A stretch of DNA of 64,000 nt. Source: Ignavibacteria bacterium UBA2360. Its GTDB lineage: Bacteria; Bacteroidota; Ignavibacteria; Tepidaquicellales; OLB5. The notes below the pieces were generated by a model. That model saw nothing but the letters and a program-made list of their open reading frames with translations, made no database searches and had not been told where the DNA came from. A program made the position numbers and the translations under genes. The stretch is from NCBI GenBank assembly GCA_002344125.1, contig DDTQ01000006.1:275581-339580 (forward strand), written 5' to 3'. Shown one piece after another: positions 1,301 to 8,507 of this stretch. Every line of letters starts with the position of its first letter. The first letter of the stretch is position 1.

Positions 1301-3004
1301 TCATTTCTCTACTGAACTTTCCTTCTCTGCTGTAATTTCTTCTGTTGGCAGACCCAATATCTCTCTTGCGCGGTTCAGGCCGTCATCAATGTTCCCGCGG
1401 ATGTTAGTTTCGCCTATTTTATCAAGCAGCCCGGCGCGCTCACAGGCAAACATCGGCTGCGCGTGCAGCCCGGAAAGTATCAGAACCGTATTGCGTTTCT
1501 TACAATCATAATAAAAATCTTCCAGTGTTGCAATGCCAGTTGAATCAATTGCCGGTACTTTCCGGAGTCTTAAAATCAGCACTTTTGTGGTTTTACCAAC
1601 AAACCTGATGGCATCTTTGAATTTACTTGCGGCCCCAAAGAAGAAAGGTCCGTCAATTTCAAAAATAAGCACTCCTTTAGGAATATTTTTACCCTGGATG
1701 GAATTAGCGCCGGTTTCTTCGGGTTCAACCCGGTCATCAAGTTCACGGCTAATCACGCCCACATTCGTGACAGCCGCCATGCGGCGCATAAAAAGCATAG
1801 CGGAAAGCACTATACCAACTTCTATGGCTACGGTAAGATCAAATATAACCGTCAGCAGGAAAGTTGTAACTAGCACGGCAACATCGCTCCTCGGCATTTT
1901 AAGCTGAGCTTTGAATTCACGCCATTCACTCATATTATAAGCTACAACCATCAGTATCGATGCAAGCACGCACATTGGTATCATGCCCGCATACTGCCCG
2001 AAAAAGAGCAAAATAAGCAGCAAAACCACTGAATGTGTTATTCCTGCAACGGGTGTTTTACCGCCGTTGCGTATGTTGGTTACTGTTCTTGCAATTGCGC
2101 CTGTTGCCGGAATACCGCCAAAAAAGGGCGCTACAATATTCGCGGCGCCATTGGCAATAAGCTCCATGTTAGACCTGTGTTTACCGCCAATCATACCATC
2201 GGCAACCACAGCGGAAAGGAGTGATTCCACCGCTCCAAGCATTGCAATAGTGAAAGCCGGACCCGCTAAATTATATATTATATCAAATGATATCTCCGGC
2301 ATTCTGACTGAAGGAATTGAGCTGGTCAATTGCCCAAACCTGGTGGATATGGTATCAACTTCAAGCCCGAAAACATATACCACTACAGTGCCAAGTATGA
2401 GGGCAATAAATGTAGAAGGAATTTTCTGCATGAACCGCCCCAAAAATATGATAGTGAAAAGAGATATAGCTGAAACTATTACTGTATCTGTATTAAAGGC
2501 AGTTATGTTGTTTATATAAACCGGAATTTTGGATAAAAATTCTGAGGGTAGATTCACTATTTTCAGCCCAAGAAGATCGTTGATTTGGGTGGTGAAAATT
2601 ATCAGGGCTATGCCTGAGGTAAAACCTGTAATTATAGGCAGGGGAATGAATTTTATAAGTGTGCCAAGTCTCATGAAACCCATAAATACCAAAATGATAC
2701 CTGCCATAATTGTGGCTATCATTAATCCATCTATACCGTATTTCTGGATAATACCGTAAACTATAACAATAAACGCGCCTGTTGGACCCCCAATCTGTAC
2801 ACGGCTGCCGCCGAGGGCAGATATGATAAATCCTGCAATTACAGCTGTTATGAGTCCGTTATTTGGCGAAACACCTGATGCGATACCGAAAGCGATTGCC
2901 AGCGGCAAGGCTACTATACCAACTATTACTCCTGAAGTGACATCGCTGTAGAAAAGGTTTTTGTTGTAGGTTTTTAGCGTGGTGAAGAGTTTTGGAACTA
3001 ACAT
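1301..3004 (-). CDS. SulP/SLC26-family anion permease with C-terminal STAS domain
   Basis: DxxSGxxVGIVALPLAIAFG and GGSRVQIGGPTG motifs, many TM segments, STAS-like tail (IDGPFFFGAA...VPAIDSTG). Confidence 0.93.
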   Translation of the reverse strand: MLVPKLFTTLKTYNKNLFYSDVTSGVIVGIVALPLAIAFGIASGVSPNNGLITAVIAGFIISALGGSRVQIGGPTGAFIVIVYGIIQKYGIDGLMIATIMAGIILVFMGFMRLGTLIKFIPLPIITGFTSGIALIIFTTQINDLLGLKIVNLPSEFLSKIPVYINNITAFNTDTVIVSAISLFTIIFLGRFMQKIPSTFIALILGTVVVYVFGLEVDTISTRFGQLTSSIPSVRMPEISFDIIYNLAGPAFTIAMLGAVESLLSAVVADGMIGGKHRSNMELIANGAANIVAPFFGGIPATGAIARTVTNIRNGGKTPVAGITHSVVLLLILLFFGQYAGMIPMCVLASILMVVAYNMSEWREFKAQLKMPRSDVAVLVTTFLLTVIFDLTVAIEVGIVLSAMLFMRRMAAVTNVGVISRELDDRVEPEETGANSIQGKNIPKGVLIFEIDGPFFFGAASKFKDAIRFVGKTTKVLILRLRKVPAIDSTGIATLEDFYYDCKKRNTVLILSGLHAQPMFACERAGLLDKIGETNIRGNIDDGLNRAREILGLPTEEITAEKESSVEK

Positions 3005-3014
3005 TATCTTTATA

Positions 3015-4136
3015 TTATCTGGCTGCGCAGCGGTTCGGACCTATTTCAAGATCCTCTGCATAATCCAAAGGGATCATTACGCCGGCTTTGTTAAATTTTT
3101 TAATTGTTTCGTAATTTGGTGGAGTGGTCGGGATGTTTGAAGTGATGTATTCTATGAATTCCTGTTTATCTTTAATATTGAGCGGTTTTGAAGCTGCTTT
3201 CAGCTCATTTAAAGACATAACAACAGGTCTTATTTCTGTTTTTGTGAAGTGCGAAGGGAATATTTTGGTTTCACCGTTAAGCTTGCCCAACACAGCCTGC
3301 AGTGTATCAAACAAAATAGCCGCGCCTTTTGTGGTTTCTTCCTTTGTGCGCGCAAGGTCGGGTCTGCCGGGTGATTCCAGAAGCAGCAGGTCACCGCACA
3401 AAAGTGCTTCTTTGTTTACAAGCAGCGAAACGCTGCCATCGGTGTGACCGGGTGTACTGATAACCTCCAGAATTGTACTGCCAACTTTGAATTCCGGTAT
3501 ATCTTTCAATGACTTAAACCGGAACACCTTATCTACTTCTATTTCATTCACATAGTAATCCATGTTTAACTTGGCGGCAAGCTCCATTCCCCCTGAAAAA
3601 TGATCAGCGTGCGCATGGGTATCAATTATATATTTAAGCTTCAGTCCGTTGGCGCGGATATAATCTTCGTATTCATCCATGAAGATTGCAGGTTCTACCA
3701 ATGCGCTTTCCCGGGTACCTTTATCGATCACGAGGTATGAAAGGCATCCTTTACCTATTCTGACAAATTGTATAACCGTAAACCCGGGGAAATCGATCTT
3801 ATAAATATCAAAATTTTCATTCCAGCCTTTCATGCCTTTTTCAAGGCTGACTGAATTGTAGCCCATATCCCGCAGTATTGATGCAGCCACCTGGGAATTG
3901 AGTCCTTTTGCGCAAATTGTAATTATGAGTTTATCCTTTGGGAGGGTGGAGAGCTTTTCTTTGATACCGAGGTAGTTTCCTTCTGAAATAAGGCTGTTAA
4001 CCGGGATGTTCAGGCTGCCTTTGATGTGCCAGTCTGTATATTCCTCCTCTGCGCGGATATCAAGTAAAATGTGGCCATTCGTTTGGGAGTTTATATGATC
4101 TTTAACATCTCGCGGTGAAATTAACAGGTTATCCAT
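3015..4136 (-). CDS. Rhodanese-MBL fusion (persulfide dioxygenase/sulfurtransferase-like)
   Basis: N-terminal rhodanese (LLDIR..EEY..WHIKGS; loop CAKGLNS), MBL motifs THAHADH, TPGHT and CGD, C-terminal GPNRCA. Confidence 0.85.
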   Translation of the reverse strand: MDNLLISPRDVKDHINSQTNGHILLDIRAEEEYTDWHIKGSLNIPVNSLISEGNYLGIKEKLSTLPKDKLIITICAKGLNSQVAASILRDMGYNSVSLEKGMKGWNENFDIYKIDFPGFTVIQFVRIGKGCLSYLVIDKGTRESALVEPAIFMDEYEDYIRANGLKLKYIIDTHAHADHFSGGMELAAKLNMDYYVNEIEVDKVFRFKSLKDIPEFKVGSTILEVISTPGHTDGSVSLLVNKEALLCGDLLLLESPGRPDLARTKEETTKGAAILFDTLQAVLGKLNGETKIFPSHFTKTEIRPVVMSLNELKAASKPLNIKDKQEFIEYITSNIPTTPPNYETIKKFNKAGVMIPLDYAEDLEIGPNRCAAR

Positions 4137-4200
4137 ATAAATATACTAATACGGTTTCGTTTCAAATACTATCTTACAAAATTACGGGATAATTTCCGAA

Positions 4201-4223
4201 AATAAAATACATTAAATGTTACA
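4201..4223 (+). repeat. Short copy R1 of the intergenic direct repeat
   Basis: ATAAAATACATTAAATGTTACA matches the 6183 copy at 21/22 positions. Confidence 0.65.
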
Positions 4224-4300
4224 GTAAGCAAGCTAAGTATAAATGGGCGATAAGTCGTTTTTAAAGGTTTTATTGAGTTATAATTCCTGTGTTTATATAT

Positions 4301-4308
4301 TATATTTG
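4301..4308 (+). promoter_or_regulatory. Putative Bacteroidota-type -7 element TATATTTG
   Basis: Matches TAnnTTTG, 20 nt before the ATG at 4329; an AAGGAGG SD-like motif follows. Confidence 0.55.
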
Positions 4309-4328
4309 TAATACCTAAGGAGGTTAAT

Positions 4329-5240
4329 ATGAAGAAAATAATAATTGCTCTGCTGTTTGTTTTAATCTTCGGGAATATTATTCATTCGTTTTCACTTACA
4401 TTAGATTCAAACGTTTTCAGGTATTATCCGCTTAAAGTCGGAAACAGGTGGACCTGGCAGGGTTTTGCTTACCCAATTATGCCTCCGCTTAATATAAGCC
4501 AGAAAATAATTTCTACCAGGATAATCAATAATCATCTTTATTACTTTTCCAGGCTTGATCACTTTCATAATAATGGCTTTATACAAAATACAAATTATAC
4601 ATACAGCAGAATTGACTCGTTAACAGGTAATCTGTATAATTATGACACGGTTAGTCACACAGATTGTTTAATGGATAGCCTGAATATCAGAAAAAACGAT
4701 TCAGCTTATACTTGCGGAGGGAGATGGTACAAATGTGAAGATACTGCTAATTACAGTATTTTCTCCCAGAGTATTAAAAGCAAACTGGTTTACTGGACAG
4801 ATTATTTTGAAGGCGGTGAGCGACACAGACTGGTATTGGGGATAGGAAAGGTTCGGAGCGATCAATACGGGGCACAATTCTCAATGGGGCATACACTGAA
4901 AGGATGTTTAATTGATGGCATTTTATACGGCGATACAAGCTTAGTCGGTATCAACCAGTTATCATCTGAAATTCCCGAACAATTTTCACTTTCACAAAAC
5001 TATCCCAACCCGTTTAATCCGGTAACTAACATTCAGTTTACTTTGCCAAGATCAGCATTTGTTAAGATTACAATTTACGACGCCCTGGGCAAGGAAGCTG
5101 AGACGCTGGTAAAGGAAGAATTATACGCAGGGTCTTATGAAACGCAATGGAACGCATCAGACTATCCGAGCGGTGTTTATTATTACAGCATTACAGCAGG
5201 GGAATACACAGAAACAAAAAAGATGGTGCTGATAAAATAA
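4329..5240 (+). CDS. Secreted protein with T9SS type A C-terminal sorting domain
   Basis: Signal peptide; C-terminal LSQNYPNPFNP...YPSGVYYY...KKMVLIK. Confidence 0.88.
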   Translation: MKKIIIALLFVLIFGNIIHSFSLTLDSNVFRYYPLKVGNRWTWQGFAYPIMPPLNISQKIISTRIINNHLYYFSRLDHFHNNGFIQNTNYTYSRIDSLTGNLYNYDTVSHTDCLMDSLNIRKNDSAYTCGGRWYKCEDTANYSIFSQSIKSKLVYWTDYFEGGERHRLVLGIGKVRSDQYGAQFSMGHTLKGCLIDGILYGDTSLVGINQLSSEIPEQFSLSQNYPNPFNPVTNIQFTLPRSAFVKITIYDALGKEAETLVKEELYAGSYETQWNASDYPSGVYYYSITAGEYTETKKMVLIK

Positions 5241-5262
5241 GTTTTAGCTTTAATGATTTTAT

Positions 5263-5292
5263 AAGCCGGTATATTTTTATGCCGGCTTTTTT
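5263..5292 (+). terminator. Rho-independent terminator
   Basis: AAGCCGG...CCGGCTT stem followed by a T-tract, 22 nt after the stop at 5240. Confidence 0.8.
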
Positions 5293-5310
5293 AATTTTTA
5301 CAATTTTGTT

Positions 5311-5360
5311 AATATAAAATACATTTAAAGTTAAGGTAAGTTATGTTATTTTGGATAGTA
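5311..5360 (+). repeat. Direct repeat copy R2
   Basis: aatataaaatacatttaa.gtta......gttatgttatttt.gatagta is shared with 6183-6232 (about 43/50 by hand count); weaker similarity extends a further ~25 nt. Confidence 0.85.
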
Positions 5361-5396
5361 CTGATTAATTAAAATGATTAATAAAAAAATTTACTT

Positions 5397-6035
5397 ATGC
5401 TTACATGGATTGCAGAAAATGTTGGTGGTCCCGCAATTGTTATTTTTATAGGAGCTGTTATTGCAGCCTTAGGTGCATTTTGGGCTACACAGCAACAAAG
5501 CAAGTTTGAAAAAGAACTTCGCGAAAAAAGTGATAAAATTGCTGAACTTAGTGCTGAAAATTCAATGTTTGTTACTGGGGGAAATAGTTTTTGTTATGTT
5601 ATTTTCACAAAACCTGACTTACAATCTAATTCATCTTTGATTATGCTTATGACAGATGGAAAATATCCATTATATGATGTTAACGTTAGAATTGTTGATC
5701 TTGCCAAATTTAACAAACTTGTAAAAGACCTTCCTAAACCGACAATTGAAGATATCACAAAAAGTGATTATGTATTTAATGTTGGAAATATAACACCAAA
5801 TCATGCAATGCATTTGGGCAGAATTAACCTGCCAAATACGGATGAAGCAAATTTCAACATTTTTATAACGGCTCGAAATGGTTCAATGAATGAATTACTG
5901 AGAATGAAGCGTGTTGCCGGTGAATGGTTTTCCGCGATTAAAATTCACAGACTTGAAGGTTCTACTCAAATACTATTAATGGAAAAAATAGATGATAAAT
6001 TCCCAAAAAATTCAGAAGGAAAGGTTGATTGGTAG
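5397..6035 (+). CDS. Hypothetical protein with N-terminal TM helix and short coiled coil
   Basis: 212-aa ORF; hydrophobic N-terminus; visibly AT-rich; no recognised motif. Confidence 0.7.
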   Translation: MLTWIAENVGGPAIVIFIGAVIAALGAFWATQQQSKFEKELREKSDKIAELSAENSMFVTGGNSFCYVIFTKPDLQSNSSLIMLMTDGKYPLYDVNVRIVDLAKFNKLVKDLPKPTIEDITKSDYVFNVGNITPNHAMHLGRINLPNTDEANFNIFITARNGSMNELLRMKRVAGEWFSAIKIHRLEGSTQILLMEKIDDKFPKNSEGKVDW

Positions 6036-6182
6036 ATTTAACATTTAGATTTAATAATTAAAAATAAATATCGGTTATGTAGTAGTGTCTTGATTTGACT
6101 TCAACTCCTTTGCGTTAAACTCATCACAGTGAAATCCCAAATAAATTTTTACTTCGGTAAACCATTCCAATAAGTAAATTGC

Positions 6183-6232
6183 AATATAAAATACATTTAA
6201 TGTTACACTTGGTTATGTTATTTTAGATAGTA
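6183..6232 (+). repeat. Direct repeat copy R3
   Basis: Matches R2 (5311-5360) over 50 nt and R1 (4201-4223) over 22 nt. Confidence 0.85.
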
Positions 6233-6337
6233 AAGACTTCTAATTGTGATTAATAAATAGCTTAACAATTTCAAAATATTAATAACAGAGTTTCCCGCCT
6301 TCACCTTAGAAACAAGGCAGGGGGGAATGGTAAGATC

Positions 6338-7753
6338 ATGAAAATAAAATTTTGCGGGGCGGCACAAACAGTTACAGGTTCACAGCATTTGCTTGAAATA
6401 TCCGGTAAAAAAGTACTGCTTGATTGCGGACTTTACCAGGGCAAGCGCGAAGAGGCTTACAACATAAATAAACATTTCCTTTTTGACCCCAAAGAGCTTG
6501 ATCTTGTCGTGCTTTCGCACGCGCACATAGATCACTCCGGTAACCTGCCGGGGTTATGGAAAGGCGGCTTCAGGGGGGATATTTACGCAACACCCGCAAC
6601 CCGTGACCTGTGCGCAATTATGCTTCAGGATAGCGCGCATATTCAGACCCGCGATATTGAATTCGTGAACAAAAAAAAGATCAAAAACGGTGAGAAGCTC
6701 TTCAAGCCGCTCTATGGATATGAAGAAGTCAGGGGAATAATGCAGCAATTTAAATGTATGCCTTACAGGCGAAAATTTAACTTAAACGGATTTGGCGGAA
6801 ATGTACAGGTCACTTATTTTGATGCGGGTCATATATTGGGCTCCGCCCAGGTAAGGCTTGATATAAATGAGAACGGTAAAAATATTAAATTCGGTTTTAC
6901 CGGTGATATCGGCAGGCCGCATTTGCCTATACTGCGTGACCCTGAACATATGGGTGATGTGGATTTTATGATATCTGAATCAACCTACGGCGGCAGGGTG
7001 CACGATAAAGCTTCTGATATGGATGACCAGTTCGCCAAGGTGATACTTGAAGCGCTTCAGCGCGGCGGAAAAATTATTGTGCCCGCTTTCAGTGTTGGCA
7101 GAACGCAGGAGCTTGTTTATTCGCTTTCAAAACTTTTCGCAAAAGGAATAATTCCTAAATTCCCGATCTTTGTTGATAGTCCGTTAAGCACAAATGTTTC
7201 GGAAATCTTCAAGCTCCACCCGGAATGTTTTGACAGCGAAACGGCGGAGCTGATATCAAGGGGAGTCGATGTGTTCGGCTTCCAGAACTTAACATACATT
7301 AGAGATGCAGAAGATTCCAAAAAGCTGAATTATTTTAAGGGTTCATGTATGATTATCAGCGCAAGCGGAATGGCTGAATCCGGCCGCATTGTACACCACC
7401 TGCGCAATAACATAAGCAGCGAGAAGAATACAATTTTGATTGTAGGCTTCATGGCACCGCATACTCTGGGGCGGCGAATAGTTGAAGCCGAAGGAAAACA
7501 GGGAATGTTCGTTAGAATATTCGGCGAAGAACATGCAGTGAAAGCAAAGATATATGTACTGAACTCATTTTCCGCTCACGCTGATAGAGATGAGCTGAGA
7601 GAATATTTCGGTAAGTTCACAAAAGGCACGCTTGATAAAATATTTCTTGTACACGGTGACCCTGACCAGCAGGAAGCATTAAAAGGTATGCTAAATGAAA
7701 TGAATTACAAAGATATCGATATTCCCGCAAAAGGAGATGAGGTGCAGTTGTAG
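6338..7753 (+). CDS. MBL-fold beta-CASP ribonuclease
   Basis: GAAQTVTGS, LLDCG, SHAHIDHSG, AGHILGS, ESTYG, PAFSVGRTQE and FSAHAD motifs, plus HGD near the C-terminus. Confidence 0.92.
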   Translation: MKIKFCGAAQTVTGSQHLLEISGKKVLLDCGLYQGKREEAYNINKHFLFDPKELDLVVLSHAHIDHSGNLPGLWKGGFRGDIYATPATRDLCAIMLQDSAHIQTRDIEFVNKKKIKNGEKLFKPLYGYEEVRGIMQQFKCMPYRRKFNLNGFGGNVQVTYFDAGHILGSAQVRLDINENGKNIKFGFTGDIGRPHLPILRDPEHMGDVDFMISESTYGGRVHDKASDMDDQFAKVILEALQRGGKIIVPAFSVGRTQELVYSLSKLFAKGIIPKFPIFVDSPLSTNVSEIFKLHPECFDSETAELISRGVDVFGFQNLTYIRDAEDSKKLNYFKGSCMIISASGMAESGRIVHHLRNNISSEKNTILIVGFMAPHTLGRRIVEAEGKQGMFVRIFGEEHAVKAKIYVLNSFSAHADRDELREYFGKFTKGTLDKIFLVHGDPDQQEALKGMLNEMNYKDIDIPAKGDEVQL

Positions 7754-7754
7754 T

Positions 7755-8507
7755 ATGCTTAAGTTGGTTGTAATATTATCCTTTGCCATTACAGCGTCAG
7801 TTTTTGCGCAATCTCCAGATACTTTGTATCCGGTAAAAGTTTATACCGCAGATGGCTATAAATACGGCTACATAAATAATCAGGGTTACTTAAGAATTAA
7901 ACCGCAATTTGACTTTGCAAAGGATTTCAGTGAGGGGCTGGCATTTGTAAAGTCAGATAACAATTCAAACATATGGGATTGTATAAGTACATCGGGAGTA
8001 ACTCAATTCCAAACAAACGCAAAGTACGTTTATGATTTTAATAACAGACAGTCTAAGATCATAAATGAAAATGATAGTATTTTTTTCATAAATAAGTCAG
8101 GTACTCCCGAACAATTCATAACTCCCCCAATTGATTTTGATGCAAAGAAAACACTTATCCCTTTTTACGGTAATTTGAAATGGGGCTACAGGCTCGGACC
8201 CGATGTTGTGGTATTGCCTGCAATTTACGAAAGGGCAGGGGAGTTCTCCGAAGGTCTTGCTCCGGTATTTATTATGTTCAATGAATCCGACTTACCTACC
8301 GATAATTGTTACAACGCATTCATAAATGTAAAAGGTGATGTCATTATAAAAGCTGAATTAAAGTATGATGATAAGGGCTTTTTGGAATCGAGTTATTTCT
8401 ACTCCCCGGGAAAATGGCAAAACGGAGTTTGCAGGTATTATACATCAAATGATCCTTCAACCAGAGCTGAAAAGTACATCAGGAGTGACGGGAAGATCAT
8501 TTGGTGA
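7755..8507 (+). CDS. WG-repeat-containing secreted protein
   Basis: YGYINNQG..IKPQFDFAKDFSEGLA and KWGY..PAIYERAGEFSEGLA repeats; start re-called to ATG 7755. Confidence 0.8.
   Translation: MLKLVVILSFAITASVFAQSPDTLYPVKVYTADGYKYGYINNQGYLRIKPQFDFAKDFSEGLAFVKSDNNSNIWDCISTSGVTQFQTNAKYVYDFNNRQSKIINENDSIFFINKSGTPEQFITPPIDFDAKKTLIPFYGNLKWGYRLGPDVVVLPAIYERAGEFSEGLAPVFIMFNESDLPTDNCYNAFINVKGDVIIKAELKYDDKGFLESSYFYSPGKWQNGVCRYYTSNDPSTRAEKYIRSDGKIIW

Follow-up and report, generated by a model that had tools for sequence, protein, structure and literature searches.

In a 64,000-nt stretch of an Ignavibacteria genome (the window; C11:275581-339580 of genome G000, which measures 3.7 Mb at 40% GC), the same 20-mer, ATAAAATACATTWAAWGTTA, stands ahead of three consecutive genes, which encode a substrate of the type IX secretion system (T9SS), an ‘orphan’ protein and a beta-CASP ribonuclease (RNase). 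The comparison with relatives supports the view that the roughly 100-140-bp gap between the RNase gene and its divergent neighbour, a gene for a protein with rhodanese and metallo-beta-lactamase (MBL) folds, acts, within one Ignavibacteria genus, as a hotspot of insertion and recombination whose content varies from strain to strain. The 20-mer itself is probably the shared core of an ancestral bidirectional promoter, copied at this insertion-prone gap.

The 20-mer occurs at 4202-4221, 5314-5333 and 6186-6205, each time on the + strand and with 0 mismatches to its degenerate pattern, and the 64-kb window contains no further match when up to 3 mismatches are allowed. Dinucleotide-preserving shuffles yielded a mean of 0.18 matches, with none of 100 shuffles reaching three. 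The first-pass annotation of this DNA had reported repeats at 4201, 5311 and 6183 and an extended match between the second and third; these prove to be the starts of a longer repeat family (4199, 5311 and 6183; 30 nt, 83% identity), and the extended match is recovered as an alignment of 75-84 nt. Without gaps, copies 2 and 3 (5311-5394 and 6183-6266) align over 84 nt at 76% identity, and BLASTN against all intergenic DNA of the genome aligns them over 75 nt at 78.7% (E 3e-12). They are 24% diverged, contain no identical core longer than 18 nt, and their identity clusters in one block comprising the -33 element and its upstream sequence and in a second block around the -7 box, the pattern expected of an old duplicate under promoter constraint.

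This sequence is specific to the locus. In the whole 3.7-Mb genome, the 20-mer is found with at most 1 mismatch at these three sites only, with one extra site at 2 mismatches (C6:82021), and in every genome of the genus (20 congeners) the motif occurs at 0-1 mismatch at the orthologous locus only. At 3 mismatches, the counts in the congeners equal those of a reversed-pattern control. One word among these 3-mismatch matches, ATCAAATACYTTTAATGTAA, is found once per genome in several congeners (for example G014:C1:788168, G005:C411:4113 and G011:C492:6566); it may mark an orthologous locus with a conserved promoter or operator of its own.

We compared 8-10 kb around the RNase gene, which was detected in 37 of 41 related genomes, from 19 relatives together with metagenome contigs; the relatives are uncultivated Ignavibacteria, chiefly from sludge and bioreactor metagenomes. 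At empty sites the rhodanese-MBL and RNase genes are directly divergent, 100-140 bp apart, with one motif copy between them, as seen in the outgroup genus (L045, L060) and in basal lineages (L056, L043, L042). The T9SS gene is absent from the outgroup and the basal lineages, and lies in the gap in a crown clade of the RNase tree (support 100/98), where sites bearing it carry the motif twice, by the rhodanese-MBL gene and before the RNase gene (for example L049, L038, L032 and L033). Within the crown clade, L036 and L037 are secondarily empty, L037 with a single motif, while remnants with two partial motif copies and no gene are seen in L039 and L054, and fragments of the T9SS gene in L035. G005 (locus L034) carries a different, 136-aa secreted protein and a terminator before the motif, along with other neighbours. 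On two short metagenome contigs (L050 and L051), an orphan homologue sits at the orthologous locus between two local copies of the promoter segment; L050 has an extra gene between the second repeat and the RNase leader hairpin, with no further repeat. The sister strain L053, which comes from the same sample series and whose RNase is 98% identical to that of the window strain, has the T9SS gene, lacks the orphan and shows a quite different promoter/leader type. Ordered by the RNase tree, the T9SS gene was inserted first and is older, and the orphan was inserted second and is younger.

Across these relatives the gap is thus found empty, with T9SS alleles, with a T9SS gene plus the orphan, with these two plus a restriction endonuclease (REase)-like gene, with the 136-aa secreted protein, or with remnants. 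The first-pass annotation had proposed an insertion hotspot here and named empty sites and differing cargo in relatives as what should be seen. Single-motif sites are indeed present in L037, L042, L043, L056, L045 and L060, and the cargo differs, with T9SS alleles only 38-79% identical among relatives, the secreted protein of G005 and the REase-like gene of L050. The outcome that was to speak against a hotspot was not found: in this genome and the 20 congeners the motif does not stand before unrelated genes.

The variable genes show features of their own. The T9SS protein of the window is 48% identical to that of its sister L053 and 79% identical to that of L033/G020, and by their N-termini the T9SS proteins form two deeply diverged allele classes, SLTLDSNVFRYYPLKVGNR versus NYSDFLPLQTGN (window, L053, L031-L040, L049, L055, L082). 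These classes are incongruent with the species tree, the C-terminal sorting domain and the promoter being conserved, which looks like trans-specific polymorphism of a surface protein. The extra gene of L050 (1145-2023, 292 aa) encodes a DpnII/MboI REase domain and matches the PADLOC model Aga_Helical-REase (1e-11), an effector type of short prokaryotic Argonaute (pAgo) systems; no pAgo is visible on the 2.2-kb contig of L050.

Next, we examined the repeats in the light of the promoters used by this organism. Bacteroidota promoters follow the consensus TTTG at about -33 and TAnnTTTG at -7 (PMC7366714), also given as TTG-N17-23-TAnnTTTG (bioRxiv 10.1101/172254). In the genome, TAnnTTTG is enriched strand-specifically at -20 to -50 of start codons, where each 10-nt bin holds 57-88 occurrences and the other strand only 19-31. 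For TATAAT there is neither enrichment nor strand bias genome-wide, and a scan with the sigma-70 consensus returned 15 sites where 11 are expected. The window organism uses Bacteroidota-type promoters, not TATAAT. A position weight matrix built from 308 TAnnTTTG sites further reveals a second element, a-T-T-(T/G), which occupies -24 to -21 when counted from the box's initial T and so leaves a 20-nt spacer.

The repeats share this arrangement on both strands. On the + strand, exactly 20 nt separate ACATTT from TA in all 27 copies with an ACATTT core (25 loci), which comprise the RNase-proximal copies, copy 2, both L050 copies and L051; the 27 boxes match TAnnTTTG at 4-6 of 6 positions, and perfect boxes are present in seven orthologous copies (L033, L037, L041, L042, L043, L053 and L082). 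On the - strand, CnAAATTA (reverse complement TAATTTnG) is followed after 20 nt by AAATACA in 10 of 14 loci, 18-43 nt from the ATG of the rhodanese-MBL gene. Because the repeats fit the genome-wide -33/-7 register on both strands, the core AAAT-AC-ATTT is best read as two putative back-to-back -33 elements of a bidirectional promoter. A promoter with two such half-sites would explain how the word can be conserved across genera yet unique in each genome.

The way in which the halves decay is consistent with this arrangement. In copies adjoining the rhodanese-MBL gene, ATAAAATACA is invariably retained, whereas the right half is lost in some (L031, L032, L033, L040); in copies adjoining the RNase gene, TACATTTAAWGTTA is invariably retained and it is the left half that is lost in some (L005, L031, L033, L040). 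This pattern of loss is readily understood because each copy would need only the -33 half of its own gene. Just upstream of the 20-mer, some lineages carry a unit of ~45 nt, ctttgtgtNNctttgagNctttg(a/t)g(a/t)ctttgtgtctaaaaga, present one to three times in direct or inverted orientation (L033 about 7830-7905; L031; L053 about 1270-1310; L082; L051 40-130 and 1015-1160). The unit is not present in the window strain; it may represent a minor repeat element or an array of binding sites.

In the window, copy 1 is predicted to serve the rhodanese-MBL gene, copy 2 the orphan and copy 3 the RNase gene. Copy 1 (4199-4228, + strand) contains AAAT at 4205-4208 as the -33 element of the minus-strand promoter. 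The predicted -7 box of that promoter, TAATTTTG (CAAAATTA on the + strand; 4177-4184, - strand), is an exact TAnnTTTG, placed 40 nt from the ATG and a 20-nt spacer away from AAAT(ACA). The + strand promoter half of copy 1 is decayed: it reads ACATTA, and a TA box is missing at the 20-nt distance downstream. A separate -7 box, TATATTTG (4301-4308, + strand), is predicted for the T9SS gene, an exact TAnnTTTG 21 nt before the ATG and within the genome-wide peak at -20 to -50; copy 1 is therefore assigned to the rhodanese-MBL gene. The T9SS box lies inside a stretch ahead of the gene that five genomes keep, with the segment gtattatatttgtaatacctaaggagg shared by the window strain, L031, L033, L040 and L035. 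Copy 2, the predicted orphan promoter (5311-5394, + strand), has its -33 ATTT at 5323-5326 and a -7-like box, TATTTTGG, at 5347-5354; copy 3, the predicted RNase promoter (6183-6266, + strand), has ATTT at 6195-6198 and the -7-like box TATTTTAG at 6219-6226.

A comparison of the junctions shows that the inserted genes entered at different points. The T9SS gene entered after ...GTTACAGTAAG, a point within the RNase promoter's spacer, and ~28-30 bp were duplicated; the orphan block entered after GATTAATAAAAA, at about +45 of the RNase leader, with ~76-95 nt duplicated; and the REase-like gene of L050 entered further downstream, with 0 bp duplicated. These three entry points fall within about 120 bp. 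In L051, the duplicated segment takes in an additional element upstream (left) of the 20-mer. Copy 2 of the window is identical at 74 of 76 nt to the single RNase promoter of G005, though the two RNases are 89% identical; the leader downstream of copy 3 matches the G005 leader at 26 of 27 nt, and copy 3 itself is ~76% identical to the G005 promoter. Copy 2 and the leader after copy 3 together rebuild the uninterrupted promoter-leader of G005 with few differences, indicating that the inserted block consists of the orphan plus a diverged promoter copy. An old duplication would be expected to yield such a block, as would homology-facilitated or Campbell-type recombination with DNA from a different lineage.

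The locus is also mosaic. At least four promoter/leader types (I-IV), as well as the T9SS alleles, are incongruent with the RNase tree. One promoter/leader type is common to L037 and L053, whose RNases are 84% identical, and the window strain differs in type from its 98% sister; the sequences of L005 and L050 agree fully as far as the 20-mer's midpoint, beyond which they are unrelated. This incongruence of promoter/leader types and T9SS alleles with the RNase tree argues for homologous recombination between lineages. In addition, the genome encodes a Ku homologue, which makes insertion by end-joining plausible.

These observations suggest the following course of events. The T9SS-substrate gene would have entered first, between the two promoters, duplicating ~30 bp of the shared core, by virtue of which both flanking genes could have retained a promoter. 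Later, a foreign membrane-protein gene of lower GC (33%) would have entered the RNase leader at about +45, and a diverged, older-looking copy of the whole promoter segment (~76-95 nt) would have come to lie downstream of the orphan; with this second copy beyond it, the orphan would use copy 2 and the RNase gene copy 3. The insertions would most likely have occurred by illegitimate, microhomology-mediated or homology-facilitated joining, after which homologous recombination in the conserved flanks may have spread, swapped and deleted the inserts between lineages. Selection would have acted in that only arrangements leaving each gene a promoter lasted.

Several observations sit less easily with a duplicated promoter core. 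Copies 2 and 3 have -7-like boxes that match TAnnTTTG at 5 of 6 positions, both departing from it at position 7 (G or A). The promoters are assigned from consensus and register, and the molecular route of insertion is inferred. The left limits of similarity nearly coincide between copies 1 and 2 and between copies 2 and 3, at AATATAAAATAC, as a site-specific mechanism would predict, but weak similarity may reach further left, as it clearly does in L051. Finally, conservation of the 20-mer, including the central AC and AAWGTTA, exceeds the needs of generic -33 elements, and a dedicated DNA-binding protein may therefore use the 20-mer as well.

Taken further, this last point leads to a different explanation, in which the 20-mer is an operator bound by a dedicated transcription factor, the rhodanese-MBL, T9SS, orphan and RNase genes are all under its control, and the copies are kept because they bring newcomers into the regulon. 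Divergent gene pairs often share an operator, and the 20-mer is conserved across genera far above the surrounding intergenic DNA, beyond what 4-nt -33 elements account for, with a near-palindromic core. However, the majority variant ACATTTAAAGT breaks the palindrome, no candidate regulator gene is adjacent, and the regulon would consist of this single locus. Moreover, the T9SS gene has its own predicted promoter ~95 nt downstream of copy 1, the + half of which has decayed. Copies 2 and 3, for their part, resemble each other right through the -7 box and the leader, which indicates descent by duplication rather than convergent acquisition of sites. We therefore regard an operator as an unlikely explanation of the repeats, although it is compatible with the promoter reading and could hold in addition to it. 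A shared regulator site had been the alternative raised at first pass; of that proposal, the regulatory nature of the sequence stands, whereas the copies are homologous by duplication and copy 1 has no + strand -7 box.

The first-pass annotation itself had favoured site-specific capture of single genes. In its fullest form, the 20-mer or the ~30-nt repeat would be the att site of a recombinase encoded elsewhere, and genes would be integrated serially, every integration restoring the site, as in an integron-like array with cassettes that bring or acquire a promoter. The repeat-gene-repeat-gene-repeat layout is suggestive of such a process, and one-copy empty sites, other cargo in other strains, near-coincident left repeat limits and a short imperfect palindrome in the core of the 20-mer (ACATT-N-AATGT) all agree with it, as does the finding that three lineages, whose promoter types differ, all have this one orphan cassette between repeats. 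The junctions, however, are heterogeneous in a manner not suited to an att site: the right limits of the duplications are unequal (~30, ~76-95 and none), there are three entry points, the duplication in L051 runs left of the 20-mer, and copies 2 and 3 have diverged by 24% without an identical core longer than 18 nt. The 3' flank of the orphan contains no significant attC-like structure (z +1.07), and the motif is nowhere else in any genome of the genus.

Recombinase genes and assemblies point the same way. No tyrosine recombinase is encoded in the window, the nearest PF00589 match lying at C11:237297, 38 kb before the window start, and none was seen in the loci of more than 20 relatives; the earlier statement that the window lacks a recombinase stands for tyrosine recombinases, while serine recombinases, DDE transposases and other such families were not scanned genome-wide. 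All assemblies of the window strain, from several metagenomes, show an identical, stable arrangement of the locus, which speaks against the capture reading. An apparent alternative junction at window position 6149, where contigs break in several metagenome assemblies, proved to be a chimeric high-GC join and an Illumina adapter. Together, these results make site-specific capture at this locus very improbable.

A related proposal combines the two ideas, with the promoter core doubling as the recombination site of a hitherto undescribed, trans-encoded system that inserts single promoter-equipped genes serially upstream of the RNase gene. If true, such a system would amount to an integron-like array without a linked integrase, in which each captured gene obtains a copy of the resident promoter. 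The hints of it come down to the recurrence of the orphan cassette in three lineages and the near-coincident left limits, and we give this proposal a similarly slim chance. Finally, a miniature inverted-repeat transposable element (MITE), an element of the repetitive extragenic palindromic (REP) type or an AT-rich chance match has practically no chance of being correct, since the sequence is unique to the locus in the genome and the genus, lacks terminal inverted repeats, keeps its orthologous position in other genera and is not reproduced threefold in any of 100 shuffles, even though the genome holds many intergenic repeat families and a REP-associated tyrosine transposase (RAYT) gene flanked by REP-like repeats.

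A promoter core duplicated together with an incoming gene resembles phenomena described elsewhere. Promoter capture by microhomology-mediated duplication has been shown experimentally (Li & Bock 2019, PMC6614815), and duplicated promoters before unrelated genes are widespread (Matus-Garcia/Nijveen/van Passel 2012, PMC3575422), where putative mobile promoters are defined by at least 80% identity over at least 50 nt, at -150 to -50, before genes without paralogous coding sequence (PMC3575422). As in these cases, homologous promoter DNA in the window stands before non-homologous adjacent genes, and the newcomer gene would be expressed from a copy of the resident promoter, with no mobile-element gene present. 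Unlike in these cases, the window copies are local, serial at one locus and old (24% diverged), and the phylogeny allows them to be traced to two insertions, one after the other, into a bidirectional promoter. The window repeats are the same kind of phenomenon as putative mobile promoters but formally fall just outside the cut-off, as they are 78.7% identical over 75 nt (76% when 84 nt are aligned) and lie partly nearer to the start codon than -50.

The gap also recalls chromosomal integration hotspots between core genes, a concept reportedly due to Oliveira, Touchon, Rocha and colleagues. Like these, it is a short gap between conserved genes that is empty or holds variable accessory genes, reshuffled via the flanks; in contrast to them, it is very small, holds 0-3 single genes and has no integrase, tRNA or prophage. 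As the gap lies inside a promoter region, each insertion had to preserve or duplicate promoter elements. With integron arrays the locus shares serial single-gene units, a recurring short sequence and a fixed chromosomal point, but it is not an integron: it has no intI, attI or attC, its junctions are heterogeneous and promoter-like boxes precede each gene. Like Bacteroidota primary-sigma promoters, the predicted elements combine, on either strand, a -7 box with a -33-like element spaced as elsewhere in the genome, whereas the -33 element reads ATTT rather than TTTG, and only 2 nt lie between the back-to-back -33 elements.

To see how common such a structure is, we compared all intergenic regions of the genome against one another by BLAST, finding 444 of them in 1402 repeat pairs. 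Local direct pairs number 56, of which 10 are locus-specific. Eight of the other locus-specific pairs were examined (the ninth, a C10 tandem array, was left out), and these flank tandem paralogues, RAYT or similar. Copies 2 and 3 are the only examined locus-specific pair bracketing a cargo gene that is neither paralogous nor mobile, making this structure uncommon in the genome, yet of a known kind.

The locus offers a natural case, with the order of events set by phylogeny, in which a compact bidirectional promoter takes up a gene and neither neighbour is silenced: the core common to both sides is duplicated, and each copy later retains just its required half. For uncultivated Ignavibacteria, it also provides an initial in-silico picture of promoter architecture, with a TAnnTTTG -7 box and aTT(T/G) 20 nt upstream, and describes a small recombination-prone islet with hypervariable cell-surface genes. 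A new mobile-element or recombination system is unlikely to be revealed by it.

The layout of genes given at first pass, with a terminator-bearing T9SS gene, an AT-rich ORF (open reading frame) at 5397-6035 and a conserved RNase gene, is upheld in full. To the left, a SulP transporter gene (1301-3004, - strand) is followed by the rhodanese-MBL gene (3015-4136, - strand), which is persulfide-dioxygenase-like (Pfam Rhodanese 5e-16, Lactamase_B 1e-11) and forms the conserved left flank, at 68-86% identity among congeners. The T9SS-substrate gene (4329-5240, + strand) encodes a C-terminal Por_Secre_tail domain (Pfam PF18962, 2e-11) and ends in an intrinsic terminator with an 11-bp stem and a T-run (5263-5288, to 5298 with the T-run, + strand), which is conserved among relatives. 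A scan of 3800-6600 against Rfam at E<=1 gave only sub-threshold chance matches, among them L20_leader over this terminator (29.9 bits against a cut-off of 58.7), and a known RNA was rejected as an explanation.

The orphan ORF (5397-6035, + strand; 212 aa) has a GC content of 0.33, lower than that of the RNase gene (0.44) and of the genome as a whole (0.40). It has no family match in Pfam, NCBIfam, PADLOC or PHROG, and no homologue in the 20 congeners or in 115 other genomes of the order; database homologues number 27, the closest being 94% (L050) and 78% (L051) identical. An origin by tandem duplication of the 5' end of the RNase gene is ruled out, as the two show no similarity. The orphan is predicted to be a membrane-anchored beta-sandwich protein, its AlphaFold2 (AF2) model (pLDDT 87) containing an N-terminal transmembrane helix, a long helix (12-60) and a C-terminal beta-sandwich; a fold search with this model returned only weak immunoglobulin (Ig)-like matches, to ASF1 and complement MG domains (TM-score 0.3-0.36). 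Its family (~27 sequences, including metagenome-assembled genomes of Nitrospira) has invariant TGGNSF, YPLYDV, RIVDL, VGN and F(x)ARNG motifs and a sporadic distribution, its members occurring as singletons between housekeeping genes in unrelated contexts. On one contig, a homologue lies beside mobile-element-like genes of the helix-turn-helix (HTH)/excisionase-like and AAA_25 kinds.

The RNase gene (6338-7753, + strand; Pfam Beta-Casp 1e-36, RMMBL 1e-13) forms the conserved right flank and encodes a generic bacterial beta-CASP RNase. Its best NCBIfam match is the beta-CASP model of Cas14 from type VII CRISPR, an identity we rejected at 397 bits against an 800-bit cut-off, and the second match is archaeal aCPSF1. 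A stem-loop in the 5' leader (6293-6326, + strand) ends ~11 nt before the ATG, and nearly all relatives have a hairpin 10-15 nt before the start codon (L034 5702-5721; L005 534-554; L060 5969-5988). At least three unrelated stems are represented, ttcccgcNNNNgcgggaa, accctgaaacaagttcagggt and ttcttcgctacgctcagaa, overlapping or preceding GGAAT, with z-scores of -2.4 to -2.9 for three of the hairpins; the structure may serve the beta-CASP RNase as a leader for translational control or autoregulation. In L055 (3640-3790), ~130 nt with two hairpins (agctccgataggagcg, agctccgtaggagcgg) are inserted in this leader, possibly as a small mobile repeat.

Elsewhere in the genome, a 147-aa IS200/RAYT-like ORF (MSHSFTKIWLHS...) is encoded at C1:763260-764037 between direct pairs of REP-like hairpins (tagcccacggatttatccgtggg ... 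aaccacttcagtggttt). Long intergenic tandem arrays with staggered self-matches of 75-88% are present at C10:44879-46872 and C6:395694-401992, with a period of ~75 nt on C10.

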